Of a stretch of DNA of 64,000 nt, positions 4,059 through 61,543 are shown piece after piece; position 1 is the first letter of the stretch, and every line of letters starts with the position of its first letter. The translations under genes and the position numbers were made by a program. This DNA comes from an uncultured Candidatus Actinomarina sp. (GTDB lineage: Bacteria > Actinomycetota > Acidimicrobiia > Actinomarinales > Actinomarinaceae): contig CACJJR010000001.1 of the NCBI GenBank assembly GCA_902593795.1, forward strand, positions 131,230 through 195,229, given 5' to 3'. Under the pieces are notes generated by a model, which saw only the letters and a program-made list of their open reading frames with translations, was not told the origin of the DNA and searched no databases.

Positions 4059-5036
4059 CTATGGCGTTATTAAAACCATGGAGTAAAGAATGTAATCTCT
4101 GTCTCCTAACTCATTTGGAGCTACAGAAGATATCAATAAATAAGTGCCGTTGTCTAACAAAATACCTGTTGGGTCAAGATAGCTCATATTCGTTGGTGAT
4201 ATTGCATTTCCAGTAAATTCCCAAGTAAGGCCATCTTTTGACGTACCGTAAAAAATACTCTGAGGGATTCTTGGAAGCCCTTCTGGTGAATAGGAAAAGA
4301 CAGCCTCCCAATTATTTTCTTCAGCTCGTAAAACTTCAAAATCAACATAACCATTTTCTAGCCTGTATCCTGGATCTTTCGTAAATTTTATTCCTTTAGG
4401 TGAATCTGAAGTAGCGCTTACTATTTTTTCTCCACGCATTCCTGTTGATTCTGCAACCCAATAAAGTCTTACACGTCCATCCGGTAAAAGAACTGAATCG
4501 GGAACACCCCAAGCCATACTTCCGCCATCGTTAAAACCTAACGATTTTGATTCGGAGTAGGTTAGTCCATCCTCACTGAATATAGCCGTATATATTTCTT
4601 TCGATTTTGTATTAGGGTTGAGTTCAACATAATACCCCCTTCTAACACCATCTACAGTTGTAATTAATGTTAAGTCTTGAACTCTGTTTACTACACCTTG
4701 TCTGATACAGTTCAGTTCATAATCACATAAATCCACAGCTAATCCCATTACATCAAGACTCGAATAAAAAATTCTTAATGTAGAGCTGTCAACAACTTCC
4801 ATATGTGGACTTACGCCCCTTACCATCATGTTTTTAATTTCTGAAAGAACTCCGTCTGGCTGAAGAGTAGTTGTGGTTGTATCTTGAACTGTAGTTGTGG
4901 TTGTATCTTGAACTGTAGTTGTGGTTGTCTCCTGTTCTTCAGTAGAAGCAGGCTGTTCAACTGAGCTTGTAACACCCTCTACGCTTGAACCTCCACAAGA
5001 AATAAGTATGAATCCTAAAAATATTATTTTCTTCAT
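4059..5036 (-). CDS. lipoprotein with a Thr-rich linker and a BNR (Asp-box) beta-propeller-like domain, function unknown
   Basis: 325 aa. It has the lipobox LISC, the linker TTTTTVQDTTTTTVQDTTTTTLQ, and Asp-boxes SEDGLTY and SKDGLTW. Confidence 0.7.
   Translation of the reverse strand: MKKIIFLGFILISCGGSSVEGVTSSVEQPASTEEQETTTTTVQDTTTTTVQDTTTTTLQPDGVLSEIKNMMVRGVSPHMEVVDSSTLRIFYSSLDVMGLAVDLCDYELNCIRQGVVNRVQDLTLITTVDGVRRGYYVELNPNTKSKEIYTAIFSEDGLTYSESKSLGFNDGGSMAWGVPDSVLLPDGRVRLYWVAESTGMRGEKIVSATSDSPKGIKFTKDPGYRLENGYVDFEVLRAEENNWEAVFSYSPEGLPRIPQSIFYGTSKDGLTWEFTGNAISPTNMSYLDPTGILLDNGTYLLISSVAPNELGDRDYILYSMVLITP
4867..4930 (-). repeat. 24-bp tandem repeat (about 2.6 copies) encoding the Thr-rich linker
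   Basis: On the plus strand, gtagttgtggttgtatcttgaact occurs at 4867..4890 and again exactly at 4891..4914. A diverged partial copy follows to 4930. Confidence 0.9.
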
Positions 5037-5068
5037 ATTTTGATACTACACAGTTATTTCATGACAAA

Positions 5069-5221
5069 AGCAAAAATCCCGATTGATCTTGCGACCCTCC
5101 GGGATTTTTTATTCTATCTTCTTTTCCATCTTGCGATTTCTTTTCCGATAGTGTTCTATAAATATACGTTAGTTTTTGTTCTTACGCAAGATATTTACTA
5201 ATGTATTTTTCGCGAGGTTTA
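5069..5221 (-). promoter_or_regulatory. copy B of the duplicated upstream element, before the BNR lipoprotein gene 4059..5036
   Basis: The hairpin at 5072..5110 has the same arms and the same GGTC-GCAA-GATC interior as copy A. A second small GCAA hairpin at 5128..5137 corresponds to 3941..3950 in copy A. TTCGCGAG lies at 5209..5216. Confidence 0.5.
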
Positions 5222-5266
5222 GGAACCATTTTCAACATCAAGAACAATATTCCTAATATAAAAAAC

Positions 5267-28545: not shown

Positions 28546-28619
28546 GAATTATCTCCAAGATACGCTTCTATTTATTTGTTACAGCCCCTGCTGAAATCTT
28601 ATTTTACTAGATTTACAGA

Positions 28620-28907
28620 TTATTGCTTAATATTGGATATTTGAACATCAACGTTTTTAAGCTTAATTTTCGTATTTTTTTCAATATTTATAATTAAATT
28701 TTGTGAATCAAGCTCTAAGATTTTTTTAACTCTTGAATTATCAACATAAACAATAAGCGTGTCGTTTAAAACTGGTCCTGTTACAACATCTCCTACCCAC
28801 TTATAGTGGCTTTTAGTTATATAGTCTTCAATTTTTTTAGAGTTGTTGAAGTTTATACCCAGTGTGTTGGTGTTTGGATTTATTCTTTCGGGGTCTTTTT
28901 TAAACAC
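28620..28907 (-). CDS. dciA: DUF721/DciA-like protein
   Basis: 95 aa. HYKWVGDVVTGPVLNDTLIVYVDNSRVKKILE fits the DUF721 pattern. It holds the syntenic slot immediately upstream of gyrB (the Rv0004 position in mycobacteria). Confidence 0.55.
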   Translation of the reverse strand: MFKKDPERINPNTNTLGINFNNSKKIEDYITKSHYKWVGDVVTGPVLNDTLIVYVDNSRVKKILELDSQNLIINIEKNTKIKLKNVDVQISNIKQ

Positions 28908-30025
28908 TATTCATTAGTTCTAACAGGCATTAATAAGTATTGGTATGTTTCCTCTTCACCTTGAATTACCGCTGGTTTGTCGTTTCCTGAAAATCTCAAA
29001 AACGCTTTTCCGCCGTCTAAAACTTCAATGCCTTGAATTAAGTAATTGGGGTTAAATGAAATCTTAAAGTCTGATACGTCCCCGACCTCTAGTCCGAGAA
29101 TATTAATATCAATCTCCTCAACACCCCCACCAATATCTTTGTTTGTTGATGAGATGTTTAATGTGTTCTCGTTAACAACCTTTAAAGTTACTGGAATAAA
29201 GCCCTCAGCAACAACAGTGGATCTGTCTAATGATTCCAAAATATCTTTTTTGTCTACCTCTATAGAAAAAACGTTTTCTTTTGGAAAAAGTGCTTGGTAT
29301 TCTGGATAACTTCCTTCGAGTTTCCTTACTGATGTATAGTATTTGTCGTTATAAAAATGAAGCTCTCTGTCTGTTGAGTTTATGAAAATTCTTTCTTCAC
29401 TGTCTTCAAAAAGTTTTATTGTTTCGTTTAAGGATCTGTATGAAACTATTCCAGCATCGTTTATTGGAAGGTTTGAAATCGTGTTTGTTGCGAGTCTGTA
29501 GCTATCTGTTGAAACAAGTGTCGTTTTTTCTTCTTCGTTGTCAAAATATACCCCCGTAAGTATTGGTTTTCCTCCTTCTGGAGAAGCTGCTATCCCAACT
29601 TTTCTTAAGGCTTGGAAAAGCTCTGATGGTGCTAGTTCTTGGCTTTCTTCTTCTTTATAAGACTTTTCAAGTAATGCTTTTGGGTATGTTAGGTGGTCTA
29701 GTTTTCTTAGTTTATATTCAGACTTTTCAGTTTCGATCATGACTTCGTTTCCTAGGTCTGAAAAAACAACCTCTCCTGGTGCCATTTTCCTTACCACCTC
29801 GGACAAAACCCTTGAACTTATTAAACACTCTCCGTCTACCATTGAATCTACCTGAAGCTTGGCCTTTATTACCAGATCTAAGTCTGAACCAATTACCTCA
29901 CAAAAGCCTTCTTCAACTTTAATGTAGATGCCTTGAAGAGAAGGTGTTGAGGGTTTAACATCCACAGCTCTTGAAACAGACAGTATGACTTCTTTTAGCT
30001 CTTTTGTTTTTGACTTAAACTTCAA
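28907..30025 (-). CDS. dnaN: DNA polymerase III beta sliding clamp
   Basis: 372 aa. It has three-domain clamp length, the C-terminal LLMPVR motif, and a position directly after dnaA. Confidence 0.9.
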   Translation of the reverse strand: MKFKSKTKELKEVILSVSRAVDVKPSTPSLQGIYIKVEEGFCEVIGSDLDLVIKAKLQVDSMVDGECLISSRVLSEVVRKMAPGEVVFSDLGNEVMIETEKSEYKLRKLDHLTYPKALLEKSYKEEESQELAPSELFQALRKVGIAASPEGGKPILTGVYFDNEEEKTTLVSTDSYRLATNTISNLPINDAGIVSYRSLNETIKLFEDSEERIFINSTDRELHFYNDKYYTSVRKLEGSYPEYQALFPKENVFSIEVDKKDILESLDRSTVVAEGFIPVTLKVVNENTLNISSTNKDIGGGVEEIDINILGLEVGDVSDFKISFNPNYLIQGIEVLDGGKAFLRFSGNDKPAVIQGEEETYQYLLMPVRTNE

Positions 30026-30128
30026 TTTATTCCTTTATATATATAACAACAATAAAGCTGTTAAAAATGTTTAATAAACCAAACAACTTTTTAAACACGC
30101 TTTTTCTTTGTAGTAAGTTTTAAACATT

Positions 30129-31451
30129 TTAAACACTCTCAAGAGAATTGTTCTTAAAAGTTATTTTATTGTTGAAAATGTTTATTTCTTTCTTCAAACC
30201 AGGAGAACCCTCAACTTTTTTAATTGAGGACAGAATGGTCGAGTGAGATCTGTTTCCAACATACAGACCAATCTGATTTAAAGAATATTCGGTGTGTTTT
30301 CTCATTAAATATATAAAGAGGTGCCTAGCGTTGCTAACCTGCTCGCTTCTGTTTTTAGACAAAACCAGCCTTTTATCAACTTGATATAAATCTGAGCAGT
30401 AATCAAGAATAAACTCTGGCGTAAGCTCTAAAACTTTGTTTTCACTATACATTGAAACAAGCTCTGCAACGTATTTAGCATTACCCTCACCTGTTTGTTT
30501 ATTGATTATAAGGTTGTTCACAACACCATTTATTTCCCTAAAGCTTTGAAAGTCTAAAGAGGAAAGTAGTTTAAACTCTTTATTTGTTACCAGGTTTCCA
30601 CCATATTCTTTGTTGCTTTGATTCAGCACCTCTGAGAATATTTTTTTATCAGGCTTTTCAATATCAGTAACGAGCCCGTTTAATATTCTTGACACCAATC
30701 TCTCAGGAAAACCAAGAAGATCTTGTGGTTTTTGATCAGACGCCAAAACAACGGCTTTAGAATTATTTAAAAAATAGTTTATGGTGTGAAAAAGCTCTTC
30801 AGAAACACCCTTTTTGCCTAAGAAAAACTGAATATCGTCAATTAACAATATATCAACAGATCTTATTTTGTTTTTAAAAATGTCTATATCTTTGTTTTTT
30901 ATTCCGCTTATATAAGATTCAAGAAAGGACTCTGAATCGATATAAAAAGAGGAGTAAGAAGCCTTTTCTATGGTTTTAAGTAAGTGGGTTTTTCCGACAC
31001 CTGGCTTTCCATAAACAAAAAGAGGATTAAAACGACTACCGGGATTCATGACAACGTTTTTAGCGGCTGTTACGGCAAGGTTGTTACAACTACCTATAAA
31101 CAAATCGTCAAAAAAATCAAGATCAAACACTGGCTGGTCCTCAATGATCTCCTCTTCGACTTTTTCTTCTATAACTTCAACTGATTGAGGGGGTTTAATA
31201 AAAGATTTATCAAGAACAAAGACACAGTTATGACCAGGCTTTATTGATTTATATACCTTTTCAATGCTATTAAAAACTTTTTTCTCAATAGAGGTCTTAA
31301 TAAAATCAGAACCAACATAAATATTTAAATTACCATCGGGACTTATTTCAAAACCAACCTGGTCAAGCCAGTACTTATCAGTTTTATTTTCTACTTCACT
31401 ATTTAATTTATTTTTAAAGTCTTGTAGTTGACTATTCATATCTCCACCCAA
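30129..31451 (-). CDS. dnaA: chromosomal replication initiator DnaA
   Basis: 440 aa. It has Walker A GKPGVGKTHLL, DDIQF, and the C-terminal DNA-binding block LNQIGLYVGNRSHSTILSSIKK. The true start may be the ATG at 31439 rather than the TTG at 31451. Confidence 0.95.
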   Translation of the reverse strand: MGGDMNSQLQDFKNKLNSEVENKTDKYWLDQVGFEISPDGNLNIYVGSDFIKTSIEKKVFNSIEKVYKSIKPGHNCVFVLDKSFIKPPQSVEVIEEKVEEEIIEDQPVFDLDFFDDLFIGSCNNLAVTAAKNVVMNPGSRFNPLFVYGKPGVGKTHLLKTIEKASYSSFYIDSESFLESYISGIKNKDIDIFKNKIRSVDILLIDDIQFFLGKKGVSEELFHTINYFLNNSKAVVLASDQKPQDLLGFPERLVSRILNGLVTDIEKPDKKIFSEVLNQSNKEYGGNLVTNKEFKLLSSLDFQSFREINGVVNNLIINKQTGEGNAKYVAELVSMYSENKVLELTPEFILDYCSDLYQVDKRLVLSKNRSEQVSNARHLFIYLMRKHTEYSLNQIGLYVGNRSHSTILSSIKKVEGSPGLKKEINIFNNKITFKNNSLESV

Positions 31452-31722
31452 CTTTATTAAACTTAAACGACACCATTAATATTTCATAGAGTGTGAAAAA
31501 CATATTAAATTTTTACAATTCGTTGCACCTTACCGACAAACCTTGTTTTTATTGGCTTTTGTGTGTATAAATCAACAAACAACAAACCAAAAGTTGTTGT
31601 TATAAGATGTTAGTTAGTTTGTTTTTCGCGATGTATAAATACTTTTCGCGAAGTGTAAAAATTAAAAATAAATTTGGTTTGTTTAAATACTTTATTGATT
31701 TAATGTTAGTTAAAGGTAAAAA
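31452..31722. other. candidate replication origin (oriC) / divergent rpmH-dnaA promoter region
   Basis: Gene orientation switches here. The spacer is 272 bp and AT-rich. TGTGTATAA (31562..31570) matches the reverse DnaA box TGTGGATAA at 8 of 9 positions. The repeat TGTATAAAT occurs twice and TTCGCGA(A/T) occurs twice. Confidence 0.5.
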
Positions 31723-31857
31723 ATGAAAAGAACTTATCAACCTAGTAATAGAAAAAGAAGCAGAAAACACGGTTTTAGATCAAGAATGCGAACCCGAGCT
31801 GGTCGCGAAATTCTTAAAAGAAGAAGAAAAAAAGGTCGAAAGATTATCTCTGCCTAG
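31723..31857 (+). CDS. rpmH: 50S ribosomal protein L34
   Basis: It is not in the ORF track (44 aa). The sequence is [44 protein letters not shown]. Confidence 0.95.
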
Positions 31858-31860
31858 GTT

Positions 31861-32178
31861 TTGTTGGTGAAGTTCGCTGCATTAAATAAAAAAAATCATT
31901 TTGAAAGCCTAAGAAAAGAAGAATTCTGCTTTGCAGAAAAAGGCGTAAGAGTTTTTGTAAAAGAAAATTATGTTGACACAAACAGACTAGCAGTCAGCAT
32001 TTCAAGCAAATACGCAAACGCTGTAAACAGAAATAGATTTAAAAGAAGGATTAAAGAAGTAGTCAGGGGTTTAGAAACAGATTTAAGTATTGATATTTTA
32101 GTTGAAGGAAACTCGAAATCTCCATTACTAAAATTGAATGAAGTTGAAACAATCTTAAAAAAACACCCTCTGCTTTAA
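31861..32178 (+). CDS. rnpA: ribonuclease P protein component
   Basis: 105 aa. It has the NRNRFKRRIKE motif and a position after rpmH. The start is a non-ATG (TTG/GTG). Confidence 0.85.
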   Translation: MLVKFAALNKKNHFESLRKEEFCFAEKGVRVFVKENYVDTNRLAVSISSKYANAVNRNRFKRRIKEVVRGLETDLSIDILVEGNSKSPLLKLNEVETILKKHPLL

Positions 32179-32187
32179 TATAAAAAA

Positions 32188-32403
32188 ATGAAAATTGTTA
32201 CGGTTTTATACCAAATGGCACGATCACTGCTTTCTTATTTCGGACTAGGTAGTGGAAACTGCATGTATTACCCAACATGTTCAGAGGTAATTGCTGAAAG
32301 CCTAGAAAACAAAGGGTTTGTTGGGACTATTCCTACAATTTTTAAGAGAGTTGTTATTTGTAATCCGATATATCAGAAATTTGGTAAAAATTGGCAATAT
32401 TAG
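32188..32403 (+). CDS. yidD: membrane protein insertion efficiency factor YidD
   Basis: 71 aa. It has the CMYYPTCSEV motif and lies between rnpA and yidC. Confidence 0.85.
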   Translation: MKIVTVLYQMARSLLSYFGLGSGNCMYYPTCSEVIAESLENKGFVGTIPTIFKRVVICNPIYQKFGKNWQY

Positions 32404-33203
32404 AACCATTTGCTCTTGCTATAGGATTTCTTCTTTCATATGTTTATGATTTCACCCTTTCTTATGGTTTTGCAATTGCAATACTTACAGTAATCATAAA
32501 TGTAATTATTTTCCCACTTACATTGAGACAGACCAGGTCAACAAAAAGAATGCAAGATGCTCAGTCTGATATTAAAAAACTACAGAAACAACACAAAGAC
32601 AATAAAGAAGATTTAAACAAAGCTATGGCGGCTATGTATAAAGAAAAAGGAATAAACCCGCTCGGTTGTATTTTGCCTCTTATTATTCAAATGCCAATCT
32701 GGTTTGCTCTCTTTAGGGTTTTAAGAGAACCACTAGAGTTTATCCCAGCGTCTTCAATTCTTTTTAAAGATCTTGAAGTTAGCACCAGCCTAACGTTTTT
32801 TAATATGGATCTACAGATTCCACCATCTGAAGTAGCAGAATGGATTGACAGGGTTCCTTATTTAATTTTGATTTTATTTGTTATTTTGACTGCCTTGTTT
32901 CAACAGCAACAAATAACAAAGAAATCAGGCAAGAGTGACAACCCCCAGGCCCAACAAATGCAAATGGTGGGTAAGGTAATGCCAATATTTTTTGGATTTA
33001 TTTCTTGGACATTACCAACAGGACTTGTTGTTTACTTTTTAACAGGAAATATATTTCGAATTGGCCAGCAAGCACTGATTGTAAAGCTTGACGACCGTGA
33101 AGAAGTTAAAGATGAAAAAAAAGAGGAAAAGGATGAAGACACACAAACAAATCCAATTCAAGAAAATCCTCGTAAAAACCGCAAAAAAAGAAGGAGAAAA
33201 TAG
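32391..33203 (+). CDS. yidC: membrane protein insertase YidC (short Gram-positive type) with a basic C-terminal tail
   Basis: 270 aa. It has FPLTLRQTRSTKRMQ, NPLGCILPLIIQMPIWFALF and the C-terminus RKNRKKRRRK. Confidence 0.9.
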   Translation: MAILEPFALAIGFLLSYVYDFTLSYGFAIAILTVIINVIIFPLTLRQTRSTKRMQDAQSDIKKLQKQHKDNKEDLNKAMAAMYKEKGINPLGCILPLIIQMPIWFALFRVLREPLEFIPASSILFKDLEVSTSLTFFNMDLQIPPSEVAEWIDRVPYLILILFVILTALFQQQQITKKSGKSDNPQAQQMQMVGKVMPIFFGFISWTLPTGLVVYFLTGNIFRIGQQALIVKLDDREEVKDEKKEEKDEDTQTNPIQENPRKNRKKRRRK

Positions 33204-33967
33204 TGGCAAATAATAAATGGGTTGAAGTAGAAGCAAAATCAATTGATGATGCTATTAAAGCAGGCTTAAGTGAGTTGAATCTTCAAGACGCAACACAGGC
33301 AAACATAAACATACTACGTGAACCAGAAGGTGGAGTATTTGGCGTGGGCGGAACAAAAGCCCTTGTAAGAATTTCTGTAAGAAACGTTGGTTCAAGAAAC
33401 TACTCTAATAAAAGACGTAATAATAATCGAAATAACAACAGTAAAAACACCAATAAAAACGGCTATAAAAAGCAATATGATTCAAAAAAACCAAGGGTTG
33501 AAGCTGATAAAGATGAGCAGTTAAAAGTATCAATTGACTTTCTAAAAGGCCTTGTTAAGTCTTTTGGGCTTAAAGGGGACGTAAAAGGTACACTTGAAGA
33601 CGAAAATTTAGTAGTACAGGTAACCGGTGAACAAACAGAAGCATTAGTGGGCGATAAGGGATTCATTATCCGATCACTCCACGAACTTACAAGAACAGTT
33701 GTCCAAAGAAAAACTGGTGCTGGAACCAGACTCAGGTTAGATGTTGCAGACTATGCATTAAAAAGAAAAGAAGCTCTAACTATTTATGCTGAGAGGTTAA
33801 GTAAGCAAATTATTGAAGACAAACAAGAAGTAATGCTTGAGCCAATGAATTCTGTAGATAGAAAAACCCTCCATGATGCTGCTTCAAACTTTGAAGGTAT
33901 AAAATCATATTCTGAAGGAAGAGAACCATACAGATCAGTTGTTTTTGCACCTGAAGAAGAAGAATGA
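33203..33967 (+). CDS. jag: Jag/KhpB RNA-binding protein (Jag_N, KH, R3H)
   Basis: 254 aa. It has a C-terminal R3H-like LEPMNSVDRKTLHDAA and an Asn/Arg/Lys-rich linker. It holds the syntenic position after yidC. Confidence 0.8.
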   Translation: MANNKWVEVEAKSIDDAIKAGLSELNLQDATQANINILREPEGGVFGVGGTKALVRISVRNVGSRNYSNKRRNNNRNNNSKNTNKNGYKKQYDSKKPRVEADKDEQLKVSIDFLKGLVKSFGLKGDVKGTLEDENLVVQVTGEQTEALVGDKGFIIRSLHELTRTVVQRKTGAGTRLRLDVADYALKRKEALTIYAERLSKQIIEDKQEVMLEPMNSVDRKTLHDAASNFEGIKSYSEGREPYRSVVFAPEEEE

Positions 33968-52460: not shown

Positions 52461-53189
52461 ATGAATAAAATAATCCACTCACTAAATTTAACAAAAATTT
52501 ATGGTGAAAAAGAAACTAGCGTTACAGCGCTAGACGATATTAATGTTGAATTTAAAGAAAATGATTTTACGGCAATTATGGGACCTTCTGGTTCCGGAAA
52601 GTCCACTTTACTTCATTGCCTAGCGGGACTAGATAGACCTACATCAGGTCAAATTTATTTGAGAGAAGAAGATATATCAACACTTAATGACAAACAATTA
52701 ACAAAAATTAGAAGAGATAGTTTTGGTTTTGTTTTTCAAGCATTTAATTTAATCCCAACTCTAACTGCTGAAGAAAACATTACCCTTCCCGCATCAATAG
52801 CTGGTAGAAAGCCAGATATGGACTGGGTAAAACAAGTTGTTGATGCAGTAGATATTGGTGACAGGTTAACTCACAGGCCGAACGAATTATCTGGTGGCCA
52901 ACAGCAACGTGTTGCAGCCGCACGAGCAATGGCGACGAAACCAGAAGTTATATTTGCTGATGAACCTTCAGGAAACTTAGATTCCAAATCAAGTAAAGAA
53001 TTACTAGTTTTTATGAAATCAGTAGTTGATGAATTGAACCAGACAATAATTATGGTGACACATGATCCCTATGCAGCTTCTTTTGCAAATAGAGTAGTCA
53101 TGTTAAAAGACGGAAGTATTGCAAGTGATTTAGAAAAACCAACCCAGGAAGAAATTGTTGCAGAGGTTACAGCCTTAACTAACATCTAA
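52461..53189 (+). CDS. ABC transporter ATP-binding protein (MacB/LolD-like)
   Basis: 242 aa. It has GPSGSGKST, LSGGQQQRVAAARAM and IFADEPSGNLD. Confidence 0.9.
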   Translation: MNKIIHSLNLTKIYGEKETSVTALDDINVEFKENDFTAIMGPSGSGKSTLLHCLAGLDRPTSGQIYLREEDISTLNDKQLTKIRRDSFGFVFQAFNLIPTLTAEENITLPASIAGRKPDMDWVKQVVDAVDIGDRLTHRPNELSGGQQQRVAAARAMATKPEVIFADEPSGNLDSKSSKELLVFMKSVVDELNQTIIMVTHDPYAASFANRVVMLKDGSIASDLEKPTQEEIVAEVTALTNI

Positions 53190-55840
53190 TGTTTGGATTT
53201 ACAAAGCGCCCGCTTTTTCTTATAGCTTGGAAAAACTTAAAAACTTACCCAGTTAGAATTTTTCTCACTACATCGTCAATTATTCTCGGCGTAGCAGTAA
53301 TTATTGCCTCGAATATTTTTTCTGAAAGCAATAAGTCAGCATTTGACAATTTGTTTACGGGTATATATGAAGGGGTTGACTTAGTAGTACAACCTATTCA
53401 AGAAGATTTTGCTCAAGGATTTAGCGGAGATGGTGGACAGGGACCTATTTCTTTTGAAGTTAAAAAGATTCCTGATGAAAAGATACAAGATATACAAAAT
53501 CTACCTAGTGTGAAAGCTGCTTGGGGAGAGGTTTTAGGATATGCTCAGTATATAAAATTTGGGCCAAGAAAAGACTGCCATTCTTTTATCAAAGAGTGCC
53601 CAAGAGAAACAATTCTTATTCAAAATGGTTTTGCACCTACATTTGGTGCAGCCTGGGATAGCAACTCTTATGCTCAGCAATGGTCTCTTGTTGATGGAGA
53701 ACCTCCTGCAAGTATTAAAGAAGTAGTTATGGATGTGTTAACAGCTGAAAATAATGGATTTGTTGTAGGAGATAAAGTTACCGTTCTTGCTGGAGCAACT
53801 CCTGCAACATTTACTATTTCAGGAATTGCAGAATTTGCAAGTGTTGGGTCGCCTGGTGGTGCAACATTTGCTTTATTTGAATTTAAAACAGCACAGAGGC
53901 TTTTAGATTCAAGAGGTAAAGTCGATTTGATTAATGTTGTAATTGAAGACAATTTTGATATCAATGATGTTAAAGATCAAATTACAAACTTAGATTCAGA
54001 AAACTTAAATGTAATTAACGCACAAGAAGCAGCTGCAGAGCAAGCAGACTCTATCAAACAGGGTCTAGATTTTTTCAATACTATTCTTAATGTTTTTGCT
54101 GGAATAGCAATATTTGTTGGTGCTTTTATTATTCAAAATACCTTCAGAATCCTCTTGCTCCAAAGAACAAAAGAACTTTCATTGTTGCGAGCTTTAGGTA
54201 CGTCCAAGCGACAGATTTATAGACTAGTTATCTCAGAATCTCTCTTTATGTCGATTATTGGATCAGGCCTAGGTATTGGTTTAGGCATTGGATTGGCTGT
54301 AGCGGTTAAAGCTGGATTGCAGTATTTTGAATTCGGACTTCCAGATGGTCCATTAGTTTTAACTACAGAAGCTGCATTGGTTGGTTTAGCAATTGGAATA
54401 ACTGTCACTATTATGTCTTCGATACTTCCAGCCAGAAAGGCCTCACAAGTAAGCCCCATGGAAGCTATAAGAGATAGTATTTCAACTCCAAAAGGAAAAT
54501 CATTATTTATACGCCTATTACTTGGCTCTTTAATTTCAACGATAGGTTTTGGAATGCTATTTGGTGTATTGTTTGAATTTTTAGATCTACCCACACTGTC
54601 TGCTTTACAACAAGTTGGTTTTGGAGCAGGAATAATATTTATCGGTATATCAGTAATAACTCCATCAATAACAAAACCTTTTGTATTTTTATTTGAAAAA
54701 GTATACAACCTTGTGTTTGGTATTTTAGGCAAGTTAGCAACAGAAAACTCAAAACGTACACCAAGAAGAACAGCTTCTACTGCATCTGCTTTAATGATTG
54801 GTTTAACGTTAATTTCTTTGGCTAATGTAATTACGACTTCATTTAAAGCACAGGCTGAGACTTTAATTAGTGAAGTAATATTAGCTGACTATCAAGTAAG
54901 TGCAGCTAATGTATTTGCATCTCCAGGAATTCCAACAGGATTGTCTGAAGAGCTCTTAGAGCTTGATGAAGTAACTAAACTTTCAAGAACAAGAGCTACA
55001 GTGGTTGGATATAATCAAAGACCCCTGATACTAGGTGCAGTTGATGAAACAGTTTTTGATCTTGTAAAGACAGATGATATTGAGGGAAGCAGAGAAGGGT
55101 TTTTGGAAAAAAATACTATCGGAATTCTAAGGCCTACTGCTGAGAGAGAAGAGCTATCTGTTGGCGATAAAGTTACATTAACGATTCCTGAAGAAGGGGA
55201 AAAAGTTTTTACTGTTTCTTATATATTTGATTGGACGACCCAACCTCCTGCTGAATTTTTTGTTTTATTAGAGAATAATTCATTTTTTAATGAAGAGTCT
55301 TTAGATACTGAGTTATATTTTAACGTATCCGAAAAAACTCCTGAGCTAGAAGAGAAAATTAATGGGATTGTTGATGGTTACCCTGGTGTTGAAATACGAG
55401 ATGAAGACGGATTAGTTGAAGAAGCAAACAATCAAATACAGTTATTACTTAATGTAATTTACGGGTTCTTATCAATCTCCATTTTTGTTGCACTGTTTGG
55501 AATAACCAATACTTTATCTCTCTCAGTTTATGAAAGAACAAGAGAGATTGGACTAATGAGAGCAATTGGAACATATAGAAAGCAAATAAGAAGAATGATT
55601 TTTATTGAATCTTCTATTATTTCTATATTCGGTGCTGCTTTAGGTACAGGACTTGGAATTTTCTTTGCATGGAGCTTGATACAAACATTAGCTGATGAAG
55701 GGTTCACAGTTTTCGCTGTTTCTATTCCACAGACATTCTTATGGATTGGTATAGCAATTATTGCAGGTGTCATTGCAGCTATACTTCCAGCTATTAGGGC
55801 AGCAAGACAAAACATACTCGACGCTATCTCTTACGAGTAA
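53189..55840 (+). CDS. ABC transporter permease with two FtsX-type modules (YbbP-like)
   Basis: 883 aa. It has two repeats of a TM, a large extracytoplasmic domain and 3 TMs. The FtsX blocks are QRTKELSLLRALGTSKRQI and ERTREIGLMRAIGTYRKQI. Confidence 0.8.
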   Translation: MFGFTKRPLFLIAWKNLKTYPVRIFLTTSSIILGVAVIIASNIFSESNKSAFDNLFTGIYEGVDLVVQPIQEDFAQGFSGDGGQGPISFEVKKIPDEKIQDIQNLPSVKAAWGEVLGYAQYIKFGPRKDCHSFIKECPRETILIQNGFAPTFGAAWDSNSYAQQWSLVDGEPPASIKEVVMDVLTAENNGFVVGDKVTVLAGATPATFTISGIAEFASVGSPGGATFALFEFKTAQRLLDSRGKVDLINVVIEDNFDINDVKDQITNLDSENLNVINAQEAAAEQADSIKQGLDFFNTILNVFAGIAIFVGAFIIQNTFRILLLQRTKELSLLRALGTSKRQIYRLVISESLFMSIIGSGLGIGLGIGLAVAVKAGLQYFEFGLPDGPLVLTTEAALVGLAIGITVTIMSSILPARKASQVSPMEAIRDSISTPKGKSLFIRLLLGSLISTIGFGMLFGVLFEFLDLPTLSALQQVGFGAGIIFIGISVITPSITKPFVFLFEKVYNLVFGILGKLATENSKRTPRRTASTASALMIGLTLISLANVITTSFKAQAETLISEVILADYQVSAANVFASPGIPTGLSEELLELDEVTKLSRTRATVVGYNQRPLILGAVDETVFDLVKTDDIEGSREGFLEKNTIGILRPTAEREELSVGDKVTLTIPEEGEKVFTVSYIFDWTTQPPAEFFVLLENNSFFNEESLDTELYFNVSEKTPELEEKINGIVDGYPGVEIRDEDGLVEEANNQIQLLLNVIYGFLSISIFVALFGITNTLSLSVYERTREIGLMRAIGTYRKQIRRMIFIESSIISIFGAALGTGLGIFFAWSLIQTLADEGFTVFAVSIPQTFLWIGIAIIAGVIAAILPAIRAARQNILDAISYE

Positions 55841-55867
55841 ATATATTTTGACCTTAAAATGTAAATT

Positions 55868-57166
55868 ATGGCTCAAGAAGAAATAGTTAAACTATTATCA
55901 GAAATGGTAGAAATAAGATCTATCAGTTCAGACAAGAACCACAGAGATGATGTTGATGCATCAGCACAATTTGTTCAAGACTTGTTTGCAAATTTAGGAC
56001 TCAATACTCAAGTTATAAAAGTTGCAGGAGGCATGCCAGCTGTAGTAGCGCATACAGAAATTGATCCATCTAAAAAAACAGTCTTGCTATACGCGCACCA
56101 TGACGTACAACCAGTTGGTGATTTAGATTTATGGAATACTGAACCTTTTGATCCAGTAGTGAAAGATGGAAGACTGTATGGAAGAGGTTCTGGTGATAAC
56201 AAATCTGGAGTAGTTGTTCATTACAATGTAGTAAAAGAACTACTTGACGACTTGCCAGTAAATATTCGTATTTTTATTGAAGGTGAAGAAGAAATTGGCT
56301 CTCCAACCATGTCAGATTTCATCGAACAGAACAGAGACGCTTTAGAAGCTGATGTAATAGTTATCGCAGATTCAGGAAATGTAAAAATTGGAGTTCCAAC
56401 TGTGACTACAACTTTAAGAGGACTTGTAGATGCAATTATTGAAGTTGATCAACCAATGAGACCAATACACTCTGGTGTTGGTGGAGGAGTTGTTCCAGAC
56501 GCTTTTATGGTGTTGAGTAGAATCATTGCTTCTTTTCATAATGAAAAGGGAGAGCTCATGGTTGAAGGTTTAACCCCAACTGATATGCAAGTTACAGAAC
56601 TTGAAGAATCTTTTATGAAAAAAATGCTTGGATCAGATGAAATTAATCTATTTGATACCGAAAGTATTTCAAAAAGACTTTGGCTAGAACCAGCACTAGA
56701 TGTATTAGCTATTGATGCTCCACCAGTTAAAGATGCAGTAAATTTAGTTATCCCTAAAGCTAGTGCAAAAATTAGCCTCAGACTTCCGCCAACAGAAGAT
56801 CCGGAGCATGCAATGAAAATGCTTGAGGAACATGTGATGAAGAATATTCCTTGGAATGCATCAGTTAAATTTATTCCAAACTCAAAAGGTTCCGGCGTAG
56901 TTGCAAATCCTAATAAACCATTTACAACAGAGTTGGTTAACAGCTTTAATTCAATTTGGGATAATGAAACAGCGTATATTGGTGTTGGAGGCTCTATACC
57001 TTTTGCTAATGATTTTGTGAGAGAATTTCCTAATGCAGAACTTGTATTAGTTGGTGCTGCTGACGAAGAACTTGGAAATGCTCATGCACCGAACGAGAGT
57101 GTTCAACTTGACCACATTGAAATGCTCATTGAAAGTCTTGTTAAAACTCTCAAAAATATTTCTTAA
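55868..57166 (+). CDS. M20 family metallopeptidase (dipeptidase/ArgE-DapE-like)
   Basis: 432 aa. It has YAHHDVQP, GRGSGDNKSG, EGEEEIGS and a C-terminal NAHAPNE. Confidence 0.8.
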   Translation: MAQEEIVKLLSEMVEIRSISSDKNHRDDVDASAQFVQDLFANLGLNTQVIKVAGGMPAVVAHTEIDPSKKTVLLYAHHDVQPVGDLDLWNTEPFDPVVKDGRLYGRGSGDNKSGVVVHYNVVKELLDDLPVNIRIFIEGEEEIGSPTMSDFIEQNRDALEADVIVIADSGNVKIGVPTVTTTLRGLVDAIIEVDQPMRPIHSGVGGGVVPDAFMVLSRIIASFHNEKGELMVEGLTPTDMQVTELEESFMKKMLGSDEINLFDTESISKRLWLEPALDVLAIDAPPVKDAVNLVIPKASAKISLRLPPTEDPEHAMKMLEEHVMKNIPWNASVKFIPNSKGSGVVANPNKPFTTELVNSFNSIWDNETAYIGVGGSIPFANDFVREFPNAELVLVGAADEELGNAHAPNESVQLDHIEMLIESLVKTLKNIS

Positions 57167-57332
57167 AAAGTAAAGCTCCAGGTCCTTGTAAAGCCTTATT
57201 TTACTTAAATTTTACATAAATTTAATAAAATCTAATACAAGCCTCATAATATTTTTGTAGAATAGCCATGTAATTTAAGGAAGTTAAATTACGTCAAATA
57301 TTAGGGGGAGCTTATGGAAGGTAGGTTAACCT

Positions 57333-57878
57333 ATGAAAAAATTTTTCATCCAAGATGATGTTTCTACAGCGAAAACATCATCAATTCTATTCTTTATCTC
57401 TGGAGTAATAGCTTTTATACAGCCAGACATACTAGTTGTCAGAACATTAGCTAGTTTCTTTGGAGCTGTAGCAATAGCACAGATTGTACTCCTTGGACCA
57501 CAAATAATGGAAGACAGCATTCCTGAATCCTGGAGGACTGCAAACGCTATGATTGCTGCTGTTATTTTGCTGGATAACTTGATCGACACTGGTTATGTCG
57601 CAAGAGAACTAGAAAACCCAATTGCACGAGAACCAATATTTATATTTCTTAATTTTGCTTTTCTTGGGTATGCTTTCACAACTGAAGGTAATATGTCTAA
57701 CGTATTTAGATATATGATTATGTTTGGAGCTTCTGCATTTATTCTTGTTTTAGGCGCAGAGTTCTTTTTTGGAGTAGAGATACCTGAATCTCTTGACATA
57801 ATATTTTTGCCAGTGTTCTTTACCTGGCTTATAGGAATTACAGCGGGAACTTACACAGCTTTTAGCAATAAACAATAA
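57333..57878 (+). CDS. polytopic membrane protein, paralog M1 of an uncharacterised family
   Basis: 181 aa. It has MKKFFIQ..., IPESWR after TM2, and IPES before the last TM. It is similar to M2 and M3. Confidence 0.7.
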   Translation: MKKFFIQDDVSTAKTSSILFFISGVIAFIQPDILVVRTLASFFGAVAIAQIVLLGPQIMEDSIPESWRTANAMIAAVILLDNLIDTGYVARELENPIAREPIFIFLNFAFLGYAFTTEGNMSNVFRYMIMFGASAFILVLGAEFFFGVEIPESLDIIFLPVFFTWLIGITAGTYTAFSNKQ

Positions 57879-57896
57879 CAAAAGAAAGGAAATAAA

Positions 57897-58469
57897 ATGA
57901 AAGCATTTTTTACCCAACCGATAGGCAGTCTTGTAAGACAAAACGCAATCGGTTTTATTGGTTGTAATATTTATTTAATTGCTACTGGATTTGAACTTTT
58001 TGAGTCCGTTGATGGAGTAAATAGAATATTCAACTTTGCTTGGGGTTTTACATTATTAGCGATAATTATAGGTAGTTATCAATTAGTTGAAGATCAGGTA
58101 CCTGAGTACTGGAAAATGGCTACCGGTATTTTAGGAACAGTGATAATACTTGGAACACTTATTGAAATATCAGTACCTGAATTTAGAGAAAATGGTTTTT
58201 CAGGAATGTACTTCCTGTGGGCATTCAACTCATTGACTTATCTTCTTACTATAAGAGGTACTGGAGTCTTTAGACCAGTTTATGAGTATTTAAGTATTTT
58301 TGCTTTTACTTTTATCCTCATTGCCTCAGGTGGAAATTTATTTTTTGATTATACACCACCAGAGTCAATCCAACTAGTTTTTGGAATCGCATGGATCTCT
58401 ATGATTATAGGTTTTGGATACGGAAGTTATGTTGCTTGGGGTGACAAAATGTCATCAAGCACAGAATAA
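57897..58469 (+). CDS. polytopic membrane protein, paralog M2
   Basis: 190 aa. It has MKAFFTQ..., VPEYWK and TPPES. The RBS region aaagaaaggaaataaa is shared with M3. Confidence 0.7.
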   Translation: MKAFFTQPIGSLVRQNAIGFIGCNIYLIATGFELFESVDGVNRIFNFAWGFTLLAIIIGSYQLVEDQVPEYWKMATGILGTVIILGTLIEISVPEFRENGFSGMYFLWAFNSLTYLLTIRGTGVFRPVYEYLSIFAFTFILIASGGNLFFDYTPPESIQLVFGIAWISMIIGFGYGSYVAWGDKMSSSTE

Positions 58470-58486
58470 AAGAAAGGAAATAAATT

Positions 58487-59026
58487 ATGAAATCATTTTT
58501 TGCATCAACAGATAAAGAAAATGCACAACAGGCTGGTTACTTATTCCTAATTACAAACCTTTTAGGATTTGTAACTACAGGAATAATGGGAATGGAAGCT
58601 CCTCCGGGAGAGCTATTGGTAAACTTTTTATGGGGTTTAAGCCTTGCTGGTATTTTTCTGACCATTAAACCATTATTAGGAGATAATGTGCCTGAAAATT
58701 GGAGAGAAGGCACAACTTTTCTAGCAGCAGCAATTTTTGCAGGAAACTGTTTAACACTAGGAAGTGATGGAAATGAATTTGGTCCTTTTTTCTTTTTTAT
58801 TTGTTTAAACATGGTGGCTTTATATGCAGTTTCAGAGGGTGTTATTGGTAATATATGGAGATACAACCTTTTAGTCGGAGGGCTTATGGGAGTTATTTTT
58901 GCTGGGGCTGGGACATTTTTTGGATATGAACCGCCAGAAGCTTTAATGCCCCTTCAATTAGTCCTTTGGGTAACATTTATCTTAGGTCTAGGAGTAGGCC
59001 CATTGTTAGCATGGAGAGATAGATAA
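58487..59026 (+). CDS. polytopic membrane protein, paralog M3
   Basis: 179 aa. It has MKSFFAS..., VPENWR and EPPEA. Confidence 0.7.
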   Translation: MKSFFASTDKENAQQAGYLFLITNLLGFVTTGIMGMEAPPGELLVNFLWGLSLAGIFLTIKPLLGDNVPENWREGTTFLAAAIFAGNCLTLGSDGNEFGPFFFFICLNMVALYAVSEGVIGNIWRYNLLVGGLMGVIFAGAGTFFGYEPPEALMPLQLVLWVTFILGLGVGPLLAWRDR

Positions 59027-59667
59027 TGTATGTAAGACTAGGATTAGCAACTCCAAAAGAAGGAATGACAGAGGAAGCTCTTCATTATTTTAGAGACGTA
59101 GCAATTTCTGTTTATGATCAAGTAAGTGGTCTTCTTGGTGCTGCAGCATGTATTAACAATGCTGGTCAGCTCATGGCATGGACTACTTGGGTGAACAATG
59201 AAGCAAAAGAAGCTGCAATGTCAGAGTTTCAACAAAACCTTTCAGGATTAGCTGATTTCATTACAGAACCCCCAACAATACTTGAAGGGCCAATGGTTGC
59301 AGGACAACAATACATTATGGTTCCAAAAGATGGTGAAGACCCATTTTTTGCAAGATTTGTATTAGGCGGTGGAACTCAAGAAGGTAAAACTTATGATGAT
59401 GTTACAGAGTTTATGACAAACACTGTTTATCCGGCATATGAAAATGTTGATGGCATATTTGCTACTGCTGCATGCAAAGTTGATGACAATAGTGGTTTTA
59501 GTTTCAATTTTTGGACGAGTCACGATGCTGCACATGCAGCATCTGATGTAATCGCAGATGTTGTACAAGATGCAGTTACAAATTTAATTAAAGAAGCACC
59601 TCAAGAATTAACAGGAGAATGTAATGTTTGGAAAAACTATGTCGATTTTCCTGTAGGAAAAATATAG
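59026..59667 (+). CDS. soluble protein with two tandem ferredoxin-like (ABM/Dabb-like) halves, paralog S1
   Basis: 213 aa. The two halves start MYVRLGLATPKEG... and FFARFVLGGGTQEG... and resemble each other. The ABM-like assignment rests on the pattern (beta-strand start, W/F..S.eda..) only. The start overlaps the M3 stop (TAATG). Confidence 0.6.
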   Translation: MYVRLGLATPKEGMTEEALHYFRDVAISVYDQVSGLLGAAACINNAGQLMAWTTWVNNEAKEAAMSEFQQNLSGLADFITEPPTILEGPMVAGQQYIMVPKDGEDPFFARFVLGGGTQEGKTYDDVTEFMTNTVYPAYENVDGIFATAACKVDDNSGFSFNFWTSHDAAHAASDVIADVVQDAVTNLIKEAPQELTGECNVWKNYVDFPVGKI

Positions 59668-59677
59668 AAAGGAAATT

Positions 59678-60295
59678 ATGTTAACTAGTAAAGAAGCTCA
59701 GCTCGGTAGTTTAATGGCAAGAATTGCAGCATTGGGAACCATTGTTGTATTCGCAGTTCAAGCTTTGCTTATTGGGCCAGATCAGATTGGTTATAGCACT
59801 GAATACGGAGCTATTGTAGATATAGCTTCATTTGTTCAAACTTTTGGAATTTTGTTTACAATTTCGTTAACTCAAAAATTGTTTGGAGACAACAATCCAT
59901 ACTTTAGGATTGTCAGTGCAATACTATTTGTTGCTGCAGTAATTCAACTAACAGGATCATTGTCATCAACAGGTAATGCAAACAGCGTCTTTGATTCTGT
60001 ACTATCAGCAGATCAAGCAAATGCAGTTGCAAATAACGGCCAGCTCGTTACATTCGTCCTATATGGAATATGGGCCTTATGCTTAATAAGTGCTGATGAA
60101 AATAATCGTGTTCCATCGTGGGGAAGAATGTCTGGACAAGGTGCTGCTTACCTTGTTATAGCTGTTCAAATTGGAGCATTATTTGGTTTGATACCACTAG
60201 CTGCTTTTGTGCCGGTATTCATTCTTGGAGGAGTAATTCTCTTCCCAGTTTTTGTATACGGAATAAGCATTGCATTTAGTAAGTCGGGAGAATAG
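59678..60295 (+). CDS. polytopic membrane protein, divergent paralog M4
   Basis: 205 aa with 5-6 hydrophobic segments. It has the same size class and operon context as M1-M3, but its similarity to them is weak. Confidence 0.65.
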   Translation: MLTSKEAQLGSLMARIAALGTIVVFAVQALLIGPDQIGYSTEYGAIVDIASFVQTFGILFTISLTQKLFGDNNPYFRIVSAILFVAAVIQLTGSLSSTGNANSVFDSVLSADQANAVANNGQLVTFVLYGIWALCLISADENNRVPSWGRMSGQGAAYLVIAVQIGALFGLIPLAAFVPVFILGGVILFPVFVYGISIAFSKSGE

Positions 60296-60298
60296 ATT

Positions 60299-60934
60299 AT
60301 GTATTTTAGAGTAACGTTACCAGCCTTACAAGATGGAAAAAAAGATGAGGCAGTGTCTTTTGTTAAAGAGAGAGTAATGACGGAGTTTGACAATACGCCC
60401 GGATTGCTTTCTATGACAGCTGCAATTACTGGAGACACAACAGGCATAAATATTGCATGTTACGAAAGTAAAGAATCAATGGAAGCTGTTATAGATCAAA
60501 TTCAAGGTATTTTATCCGAGGCCGCCGACTTAATGGCAGCACCTCCAGTTATATACCAAGGTGATGCTGTGTATGGCAAGGTATACCAAACTATGGATAA
60601 AGAAAGTCAAAGACCAAGTTATTTGAGACTAGTTGTAGGTGTTGCAAAAGACACAGAAGCTGTCTTAAATTTCTTAAAAGAAAAAGTAGATCCAATATAT
60701 GAAGAGTCAGAAGGCCTTCAGGTAACAGGTGCGATTTTTGATGGAGATAGCGCCATTAGTTGGAACTTTTGGGATTCACAAGAAGATATGGATGCTGCTG
60801 TTGCGAAACTACAAGACGCACTTGATAGTGAATCAGAGACTGACTTGTTCGACGGGAGCACTATAGCTTATATGGGACCTGTGTACGCAGGTAAGCTGTT
60901 TATTGATTTTAATGAAGGAGATACTCCAACATAG
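60299..60934 (+). CDS. soluble tandem ferredoxin-like (ABM/Dabb-like) protein, paralog S2
   Basis: 211 aa. The halves start MYFRVTLPALQDGKKDE... and SYLRLVVGVAKDTE... It is collinear with S1. Confidence 0.6.
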   Translation: MYFRVTLPALQDGKKDEAVSFVKERVMTEFDNTPGLLSMTAAITGDTTGINIACYESKESMEAVIDQIQGILSEAADLMAAPPVIYQGDAVYGKVYQTMDKESQRPSYLRLVVGVAKDTEAVLNFLKEKVDPIYEESEGLQVTGAIFDGDSAISWNFWDSQEDMDAAVAKLQDALDSESETDLFDGSTIAYMGPVYAGKLFIDFNEGDTPT

Positions 60935-60971
60935 TTCTCTCTAACAGATAACGCATACAAAAAATGCACAG

Positions 60972-61004
60972 AAAAAAGGGATTTTATAAAAATCCCTTTT
61001 TTTT
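60972..61004 (+). terminator. intrinsic terminator closing the 57.3-60.9 kb operon
   Basis: AAAAAAGGGATTTT-ATA-AAAATCCC is followed by an 8-T run at 60997..61004. Confidence 0.75.
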
Positions 61005-61165: not shown

Positions 61166-61543
61166 ATGAATTTAAACAATTTCACAGAAGCTGAATACAT
61201 AAACCTCATTACTTATAAGAGAGATAAATCCTCTGTCACAACTCCAGTATGGGTTGCTGCTTTTTCTAATTCATTAGTTGTTACAACGAGCCTTAATGCT
61301 GGAAAAGTCAAAAGAGTAAGAAATAATGGTAAAGCAACAATTTACATTACTAACCAAAATGGTTCTAAAAAACTTTCAGAGAGCCTTGATTTAAAAGCAA
61401 CACTTATAGAAGACTTAGATCTTAAAAAACAAGCTACAGATTTAATTAGAAAAAAATACGGCATGATGGCAAAGATGATCATGAAAGGTCCTGATGAAAA
61501 AAGGGCAATTATAAAACTAGAGGAAATAGGAGGTGAAAAATGA
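61166..61543 (+). CDS. PPOX-class (pyridoxamine-5'-phosphate-oxidase-like, possibly F420-dependent) split-barrel protein
   Basis: 125 aa. The pattern YINLITYKRDKSSVTTPVWVA...GKVKRVRNNGKATI resembles the small actinobacterial PPOX-class family. Confidence 0.55.
   Translation: MNLNNFTEAEYINLITYKRDKSSVTTPVWVAAFSNSLVVTTSLNAGKVKRVRNNGKATIYITNQNGSKKLSESLDLKATLIEDLDLKKQATDLIRKKYGMMAKMIMKGPDEKRAIIKLEEIGGEK

Follow-up and report, generated by a model that had tools for sequence, protein, structure and literature searches.

Few free-living bacteria of the surface ocean are as small or as abundant as Candidatus Actinomarina, which has a 1.1-Mb genome and very few paralogs. Elsewhere, bacteriocin and toxin immunity arrays, such as pneumococcal blp and the orphan immunity islands, are strain-variable mosaics of small polytopic membrane genes at a fixed locus, and characterised proteins of the ABM superfamily (ActVA-Orf6, YgiN and IsdG) need no cofactor to bind or transform hydrophobic aromatic molecules. 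For the Actinomarinales, a single order-wide flexible island has been reported, the tRNA-bounded glycotype island fGI1/HVR (PMC7771536; bioRxiv 10.64898/2026.04.03.716425). Here we describe a locus that is mentioned in neither of these two papers, located in a window of 64,000 nucleotides (the whole stretch of DNA that was analysed; contig CACJJR010000001.1, positions 131,230 to 195,229) and consisting of an operon of four genes for polytopic membrane proteins (M1 to M4) interleaved with two genes for tandem ferredoxin-fold proteins (S1 and S2). This operon represents a recombining cassette array that occupies a fixed slot in at least 26 arrangements, a feature overlooked in an initial annotation of the window. 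It is one allele of an Actinomarina-restricted cassette operon, whose products would form a battery of small-molecule modules; to this reading as a whole we give slightly less than an even chance.

A recombining cassette array at a fixed slot

The operon consists of six co-directional open reading frames (ORFs) between 57333 and 60934 (Table 1), separated by intergenic gaps of 18, 17, -1, 10 and 3 nt. The stop codon of M3 overlaps the start codon of S1 by 1 nt and M4 is followed by S2 after 3 nt, and both pairs are coupled gene arrangements. The initial annotation had proposed a terminator-closed six-gene operon, and the ORFs, their order, the gaps, the 166-nt leader and the closing hairpin were all recovered as it described them. 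No further copies of the M or S genes were found in the rest of the 64-kb window.

Thirty-four related loci were obtained from GTDB species representatives, and their ORFs were classified with hidden Markov models (HMMs) built from the window genes. In every one of these loci, which sample strains unevenly and under-represent arrays lacking S1 because the genomes were scanned by S1-specific peptide patterns, M and S genes were found between the same flanks, an FtsX/MacB permease gene and an M20 peptidase gene upstream and a PPOX-like gene downstream. The two families thus occurred together in each related locus examined, a co-occurrence that the annotation had left to be checked. The membrane proteins were of two types, A (M1 to M3) and B (M4); 65 A-type genes formed 8 clusters at 55% identity, 47 B-type genes formed 10 and 84 S genes formed 5, which are minimum numbers of subfamilies. 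Among the 31 complete loci, 26 different gene orders were observed, each with two to five membrane genes and two to four S genes. These orders follow a common grammar, A...(B) S1 (S4) B... (S3) (S2 or S5), in which A types come first and S2 or S5 comes last; the window, with A5-A1-A3-S1-B2-S2, is one instance of it. No integrase was found among the ORFs of any locus.

Some arrays carry additional genes. Single-domain alpha+beta proteins of 106-118 aa were found within the array, one of them NIPSNAP-like (E 6e-4) and another with an ABM-like 'FW...S.E...AW' motif, as were polytopic proteins of 175-180 aa matching neither the A nor the B profile, indicating that the cassette repertoire is wider than three families.

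Table 1. Features of the M/S locus and its surroundings. Positions refer to the window unless a related locus (L number) is named.
Feature	Position	Strand	Description
dnaA	30129-31451	-	dnaN and gyrB also on -, to the left
M20 peptidase gene	55868-57166	+	left flank of the slot, outside the operon; Pfam Peptidase_M20, E 4.6e-28
Operon leader	57167-57332	+	166 nt between the M20 gene and M1
Probable -10 element	57258-57263	+	TAGAAT; TAnAnT invariant in an alignment of 27 loci
5'-UTR hairpin 1	57270-57292	+	predicted fold; 9-bp stem GTAATTTAA/TTAAATTAC, loop GGAAG
5'-UTR hairpin 2	57309-57327	+	predicted; loop shows Shine-Dalgarno GGAAGG (57316-57321)
M1	57333-57878	+	ORF, 181-aa polytopic membrane protein; A-type, subfamily A5
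M2	57897-58469	+	ORF, 190-aa polytopic membrane protein; A-type, subfamily A1
M3	58487-59026	+	ORF, 179-aa six-helix membrane protein; A-type, subfamily A3
S1	59026-59667	+	ORF, 213-aa acidic cytoplasmic protein, tandem ABM-like ferredoxin fold; subfamily S1
M4	59678-60295	+	ORF, 205-aa polytopic membrane protein; B-type, subfamily B2
S2	60299-60934	+	ORF, 211-aa tandem ABM-like protein; subfamily S2
Intrinsic terminator hairpin	60972-61004	+	A6-GGGATTTT-ATA-AAAATCCC-T8
PPOX-class gene	61166-61543	+	right flank; Rv2061-like, F420-type split barrel; NCBIfam TIGR03666, E 2.3e-21, below the curated cutoff; Pfam PNPOx_N, E 3.4e-5
Accessory slot genes	L003 3084-4727; L001 1448-4762; L009 8530-9624; L020 2358-2714		outside the M/S string
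Extra in-array genes	L005 5124-5444; L019 6654-7004; L009 4868-5395 and 7318-7860		

Exchange of cassettes and selection on them

Comparison of the window with a locus from a different genus (L030) revealed a nucleotide identity of 68% for the M20 gene and 71% for S1, against 88.6% for M1, 78.7% for M2 and 96.5% for M3. The identity changed in steps at gene junctions, from about 75% at 58286-58435 to 97-99% at 58436-58885, and such a pattern, in loci whose flanks are about 70% identical, shows that single genes have been exchanged between genera. Replacement was also seen among conspecific contigs that share an identical M2 and 99.8-100% of the M20 sequence; one version carried M4 (B2) and S2 at 99.5%, while the other carried a B3 allele only 39% identical to M4, together with S2 at 85% and S1 at 94%. 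Furthermore, the exact M2 protein was present on 296 public contigs and the exact M4 protein on 126, whereas the exact M3 and S1 proteins were each confined to a single contig, and sharply unequal allele frequencies of neighbouring genes are what is expected for a mosaic locus.

The cassettes are joined at gaps of -1 to about 60 nt that contain a Shine-Dalgarno (SD) block and nothing else. Short conserved blocks recur at these junctions, namely the SD sequence AGAAAGGAAAT, first codons encoding MKxFF, ML(T/S)xKE or MY(V/F/A)R, and C-termini such as NYVDFPVGK, and we infer that they anchor homologous recombination. Within 16 subfamilies the ratio of non-synonymous to synonymous substitution rates (dN/dS) was 0.05-0.20, compared with 0.054 for the M20 gene and 0.138 for the PPOX gene. 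As these values lie in the range of the flanking genes, the cassettes are best described as old, functional paralogs that are re-assorted, not as fast-evolving sequences, and by this estimate every subfamily is under purifying selection. Taken together, the alignments indicate that old paralog subfamilies are gained, lost and replaced by homologous sequence at the short conserved junctions, and that the slot is diversified in this way both between genera and within species.

S proteins adopt a predicted tandem ABM-like fold

S1 and S2 had been annotated as collinear paralogs, each an internal duplication of a ferredoxin-like ABM-type unit, and both descriptions were borne out. The two proteins share 28% identity in BLASTP (E 4e-26), and the halves of the S family are mutually homologous (hhalign probability 99.6%, E 7.5e-24). 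The AlphaFold2 (AF2) model of S1, built from 30 family sequences, consists of two beta-alpha-beta-beta-alpha-beta halves and scored well (predicted local distance difference test, pLDDT, 91.3; predicted template modelling score, pTM, 0.86). In a Foldseek search of PDB with this model, the top match was 3MCS (FN1347, a 'putative monooxygenase'; TM-score 0.79, probability 1.0), followed by 3F44 (TM-score 0.74, probability 1.0); lower matches were anthrone-oxidase-like 5F9P, PenE, sulfur oxygenase reductase, chlorite-dismutase/coproheme-decarboxylase proteins and heme-bound HmoB. Half-half alignment, model and structure search thus agree on the duplication. At the sequence level, the Pfam family ABM (PF03992) was weakly matched by 25 of 30 S members; the best E was 0.0022, and no member exceeded the gathering score (S1 reached 14.5 bits against a cutoff of 23.1). 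Judged from the model, S belongs to the ABM/dimeric alpha+beta barrel superfamily as a divergent tandem member whose sequence scores stay below threshold.

Neither S1 nor S2 carries a transmembrane (TM) segment or a signal peptide, and both are very acidic. In each half, an ABM-like motif, W-(D/T)-S-x-(E/D)-A, follows the third strand. Invariance across the five S subfamilies is limited almost entirely to Gly, Pro and Trp (G13, G35, P83, G88, G93, G143, W163 and G197), so that no set of catalytic residues can be named.

Membrane proteins of two distantly related types

The paralogy of M1 to M3 proposed in the initial annotation was evident from full-length BLASTP alignments at 26-28% mutual identity (E 1e-15 to 3e-24). 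Regarding the motifs that it listed for these proteins, MKxFF and (V/I)PExW(R/K) are present in all three, while PPE is missing from M1, which has IPES at this position. M4 had been considered a divergent member of the same family or an unrelated protein. It showed no detectable BLASTP similarity to M1-M3 (E > 0.1), and iterative HMM searches did not merge the A and B families. The A and B profiles were, however, collinear over their full length in hhalign (192 columns, probability 92%, E 6.8e-7), scores that can be inflated by composition when membrane proteins are compared, and M4 is a probable distant homolog of the A type at the profile level.

The AF2 model of M3 is a six-helix bundle with six TM helices (pLDDT 80), for which Foldseek returned no match with E < 0.1 in PDB or BFVD; folds of the S-components of energy-coupling factor (ECF) transporters and UreI-like, TspO and rhodopsin-like folds were rejected on this ground. 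When 20 representatives of all M subfamilies were searched, no Pfam family was matched by more than one member, and isolated hints of TspO and HlyIII were therefore dismissed as noise. No His or Cys is invariant in the M families. Conservation among A subfamilies peaks at the N-terminus (MKxFF), in the turn between TM2 and TM3 (VPExWR) and in the loop between TM4 and TM5 ((S/T)EG..N(I/V)(W/F)RY), whereas the outward loops 1 and 3 vary most. From the positive-inside rule and the AF2 helices, the conserved segments would all face the cytoplasm.

Restriction to the Actinomarina lineage

None of the six proteins matched Pfam, NCBIfam, PADLOC, PHROGs or PDB sequences above threshold, and public records label all of them 'hypothetical protein'. 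PADLOC returned a single sub-threshold match, to M4 (E 0.007), and PHROGs returned none. The view that neither family could be assigned to a characterised one thus stands after searches of Pfam, NCBIfam, PADLOC and PHROGs. An exhaustive search of 1.84 billion cluster representatives with the A-profile HMM gave only 76 matches, about 10 of them full-length clusters and all of them A-like, and among the matches listed for the S profile and the loci kept from a metagenome scan, only strong S-family or S1-type matches were present. No relatives outside the Actinomarinales were seen among the A-profile matches, the listed S-profile matches and the kept metagenome loci.

In agreement with these searches, M3 is 98% identical to a protein named Candidatus Actinomarina, the 34 genome loci all belong to Actinomarina, OCS155 or related Actinomycetota in metagenome-assembled genomes (MAGs) or single-amplified genomes, and 80 metagenome loci are likewise of the Actinomarina/OCS155 type. 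By these searches, both membrane families, A and B, are orphans confined to the lineage. Relatives were also lacking from 2.9 million viral contigs in two IMG/VR scans, and a viral origin was rejected on this basis. A literature search found no description of the locus or of the closest PDB entries.

A 616,992-bp contig titled 'MAG: Cryomorphaceae bacterium' (BOWN01000001.1) contains a locus with Actinomarina flanks and an S1 96% identical to the window copy, followed after S1 by content unlike that of every other locus. This is probably a mislabelled or chimeric MAG.

A conserved leader and terminator

The same leader precedes whichever A-type gene stands first in the array (A1, A2, A5 or A6). 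The TAGAAT box, probably the -10 element of a promoter as judged from its conservation, ends 6 nt upstream of hairpin 1 in the 5' untranslated region (5'-UTR). Across 27 loci, 98.8% of the cells in the hairpin 1 stem are paired, and the stem exists in two lineage versions in which five of nine pairs are changed on both sides and G-U pairs are used; the covariation score was reached by none of 500 shuffles. Two-sided changes together with G-U pairs indicate pairing at the RNA level on the sense strand, and the comparison suggests that the transcript begins with hairpin 1 as a structured RNA element near its 5' end. Hairpin 2 is also predicted in the other lineage with a different stem, and the sequence block GGAGCTTATGGAAGGTAGG of this region is conserved among loci.

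An Rfam search of the leader found no known RNA element or riboswitch. A leader peptide was rejected, as the upstream ATG at 57314 is missing in the second lineage. The two GGA loops, one of them at the SD sequence, resemble CsrA-type binding sites, or a stabilising 5' stem with a standby site. The leader hairpins may serve as an mRNA stabiliser, a standby site or a protein-binding site.

At the other end of the operon, the terminator folds with -15.8 kcal/mol (z = -5.84), and none of 200 shuffles folded as well, although the hairpin was absent from the list of a simple consensus scanner. The motif AAGGG...CCCTTTTT is kept 3' of the last S gene in 15 of the 34 related loci.

Flanking genes and chromosomal position

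The M20 gene lies upstream of the array in 31 related loci (65-97% amino acid identity) and the PPOX-like gene downstream in all loci (57-85%). Together with an ABC ATPase and an 883-aa MacB_PCD/FtsX permease, the M20 gene forms a conserved three-gene unit at 52461-57166 with gaps of -1 and 27 nt, and the promoter-bearing leader separates this unit from the M/S operon. In some genomes the slot also holds accessory genes, which upstream of the leader encode a luciferase-like monooxygenase (E 1e-53), a Pyridox_ox_2 split-barrel protein on the minus strand (E 2.7e-27) or PutA (Pro_dh and Aldedh), and after the array a cupin or an acyltransferase_3 protein. On some conspecific contigs, an additional ORF of 215 aa lies between the M20 gene and M1, divergent from the operon (L035, at 4602-5249 on the minus strand, and L039, L040, L043 and L044). 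We do not claim it as a TetR regulator, since its N-terminus matched the helix-turn-helix of EthR/SlmA only at E about 0.3 and no Pfam match was obtained.

The origin region, at 26623-33967, comprises dnaA, dnaN and gyrB on the minus strand, an intergenic gap of 940 nt (31452-32390), and yidC and jag on the plus strand. The minimum of the cumulative GC skew coincides with the switch of gene orientation at the dnaA/yidC gap. This gene layout and the skew minimum together place oriC at about 31.5-32.4 kb, and the M/S operon is on this sequence-based placement about 26 kb away. The locus has a GC content of 0.354-0.364, like the neighbouring sequence, and a tRNA search of the 64-kb window found none.

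Proposed function and alternative explanations

By analogy with other ABM proteins, we tentatively propose, as the likeliest function though one less probable than not, that the M/S array is a battery of membrane modules for the uptake, capture or detoxification of small hydrophobic or aromatic molecules, with a strain-specific repertoire. Each membrane protein would be a specificity module that binds or passes a small molecule (quinone, tetrapyrrole or polyketide-like), with its variable side facing outward and its conserved cytoplasmic face (MKxFF, VPExWR, EG..NxWRY) contacting a common partner, for which the co-translated ABM-fold S proteins are the obvious candidates. Like other ABM proteins, the S proteins would need no cofactor to capture or transform the molecule, and different cassette sets would give each strain a different repertoire of substrates or toxins. 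A variable outer side combined with a conserved inner face fits specificity modules that share an inner partner, and the recurrence of flavin/F420-type oxidoreductase genes beside the slot mildly favours a small-molecule or redox role. In broader terms, the array may be a previously unrecognised order-specific two-part system, re-assorted gene by gene as an uptake, detoxification or protection battery, a possibility that we regard as real but on balance doubtful.

Several observations weigh against the proposed battery. No conserved catalytic His, Asn or Tyr was seen across the S subfamilies, and judged from these alignments S may be a binder, a scaffold or something else. The numbers of M and S genes are not 1:1 and no strict pairing of M type with S type was observed, so that tight cognate complexes are less likely. 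None of the flavin/F420 genes belongs to the operon; they are its neighbours, and the PPOX gene lies beyond the terminator. Among solved transporters, ECF S-components included, nothing structurally related to the M3 model was found. Furthermore, the membrane orientation is derived from charge bias and AF2 helices only, the alignment of A with B may carry the compositional inflation mentioned above, and arrays lacking S1 are under-sampled by the S1 patterns of the genome scan.

The M proteins could instead be envelope-interaction cassettes, exposed at the surface as targets or shields (phage receptors, factors of superinfection exclusion or proteins giving immunity to membrane-acting toxins) and diversified by frequency-dependent selection, with S as a cytoplasmic accessory partner. 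The resemblance of such arrays of small polytopic paralogs to bacteriocin-immunity arrays and the low conservation of A-type outward loops 1 and 3 speak for this explanation, as does a fixed slot whose hypervariable genes pass between genera and within species, the pattern of envelope islands such as Actinomarinales fGI1 (PMC7771536). On the other hand, no PADLOC defence model was matched above threshold and no PHROG family at all, relatives were lacking in the 2.9 million viral contigs as was any fold match in BFVD, and no toxin, bacteriocin or secretion gene was present in any locus. A dN/dS within subfamilies as low as that of the housekeeping flanks gives no sequence-level sign of an arms race, and the obligatory cytoplasmic ABM-fold proteins are left unexplained, so we consider the envelope explanation unlikely. 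Still less probable is a redox or degradation module of a known ABM type, with S as an IsdG/MhuD-like heme degrader or YgiN-like quinol monooxygenase and M as a substrate channel or quinone site. Three S homologs are indeed named 'quinol monooxygenase YgiN' in the automatic annotation of the Joint Genome Institute (JGI), the Foldseek matches include heme-bound HmoB, coproheme decarboxylases and anthrone-oxidase-like proteins, and F420/flavin split-barrel genes adjoin the array. However, IsdG/MhuD-type enzymes possess a conserved Asn/Trp/His triad and ligate heme by His, whereas no His or Asn that could ligate heme or take part in catalysis is invariant in the S subfamilies, which match Pfam ABM below threshold, and the M families lack an invariant His or Cys for heme or quinone chemistry. 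Moreover, shuffled combinations of 5 S, 8 A and 10 B subfamilies are not accounted for by a single housekeeping activity.

The initial annotation had inferred tandem duplication from nearly identical ribosome-binding sites, and the aaagaaaggaaataaa junctions at M1/M2 and M2/M3 are indeed present. With the short or overlapping gaps, and with ten contigs carrying an identical M2 allele in the same six-slot order, they would suit a fixed six-gene operon, formed by recent local tandem duplication and encoding one constant multi-subunit membrane complex. Yet the AGAAAGGAAAT block also stands 5' of many non-orthologous cassettes in many genomes, and being common to unrelated cassettes it is a general junction feature, not a sign of recent tandem duplication. 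The paralogs are just 26-28% identical whereas their orthologs in other genera reach 60-98%, and the duplication claim is not supported. A constant complex also conflicts with the 26 orders in 31 loci, with the varying copy numbers and with the swap of the M4 slot within a species, and we regard it as very improbable. The small-molecule battery accordingly remains our working proposal, in the tentative terms given above.

Comparison with known systems

The S proteins resemble tandem ABM proteins (3MCS, FN1347; Lactobacillus acidophilus YP_193413, 3F44; 5F9P; and PenE, 9KDP) in their length of about 210-240 residues, their two ferredoxin-like halves within a single chain and their pseudo-dimeric barrel. 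The TM-scores of 0.74-0.79 to 3MCS and 3F44, at probability 1.0, are nevertheless accompanied by a sequence identity of only 7-13%, and the S proteins differ from tandem ABM proteins in their sub-threshold Pfam ABM scores and in the lack of recognisable conserved catalytic residues. Their nearest structural matches come from structural genomics and have no assigned function. We know of no tandem ABM protein for which a pairing with polytopic membrane proteins in a cassette array has been reported.

The M proteins can be likened to ECF S-components as a mechanistic analogy, with no claim of membership; both are about 180-200 aa long with six helices, occur as several paralogs per genome and share the idea of a variable substrate side with a conserved face for a common partner. 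In contrast to ECF S-components, M gave no fold match to RibU, ThiT or others and no Pfam match, and neither EcfT nor EcfA is encoded in the locus or the 64-kb window, the upstream ABC system being of the MacB/FtsX type and in a separate operon. With the bacteriocin immunity arrays the M/S array has in common its variable small polytopic membrane genes at a fixed locus, but it differs from them in the absence of bacteriocin, toxin, processing or export genes from the loci, in matching no defence model above threshold and in its obligatory cytoplasmic ABM-fold proteins. Integron cassettes differ as well, since the M/S array has no attC sites and no integrase and its gaps hold the SD block only.

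The closest likeness in population behaviour is to flexible genomic islands, both the Actinomarinales fGI1/HVR and the flexible paralogs of SAR11 (PMC11796062), which share with the M/S array a constant position, content that varies with strain or species, and partial replacement by small cassettes, including transfer between genera. The M/S locus is nevertheless not fGI1/HVR, as no tRNA was found in the window and the GC content is ordinary, whereas fGI1/HVR has a tRNA boundary and a low-GC signature. The M/S array spans 3.5-9 kb and lies about 26 kb from oriC, while fGI1/HVR spans 43-79 kb and lies at 85-90% of the chromosome (PMC7771536; bioRxiv 10.64898/2026.04.03.716425). The former consists of three orphan families arranged as a single operon with one conserved leader, and the latter of glycosylation genes.

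A streamlined genome that keeps 4-9 paralogous genes drawn from more than 20 old subfamilies implies that the array must be worth its cost. The M/S array offers an entry to the ecological differences among co-existing Actinomarina strains, to the recombination of single-gene cassettes without mobile-element machinery, and to the roles of two orphan families, of which S folds confidently in prediction and could be expressed for ligand screening. In conclusion, S is a new subfamily of a known superfamily, and in its population behaviour the locus is an unusual flexible island, a single operon near oriC with gene-by-gene exchange. This evolutionary picture is solid and new for such an abundant and highly streamlined organism, and if our reading is correct, the Actinomarinales would possess a second order-wide hypervariable locus in the M/S array, which would have no counterpart among described transport or defence systems.

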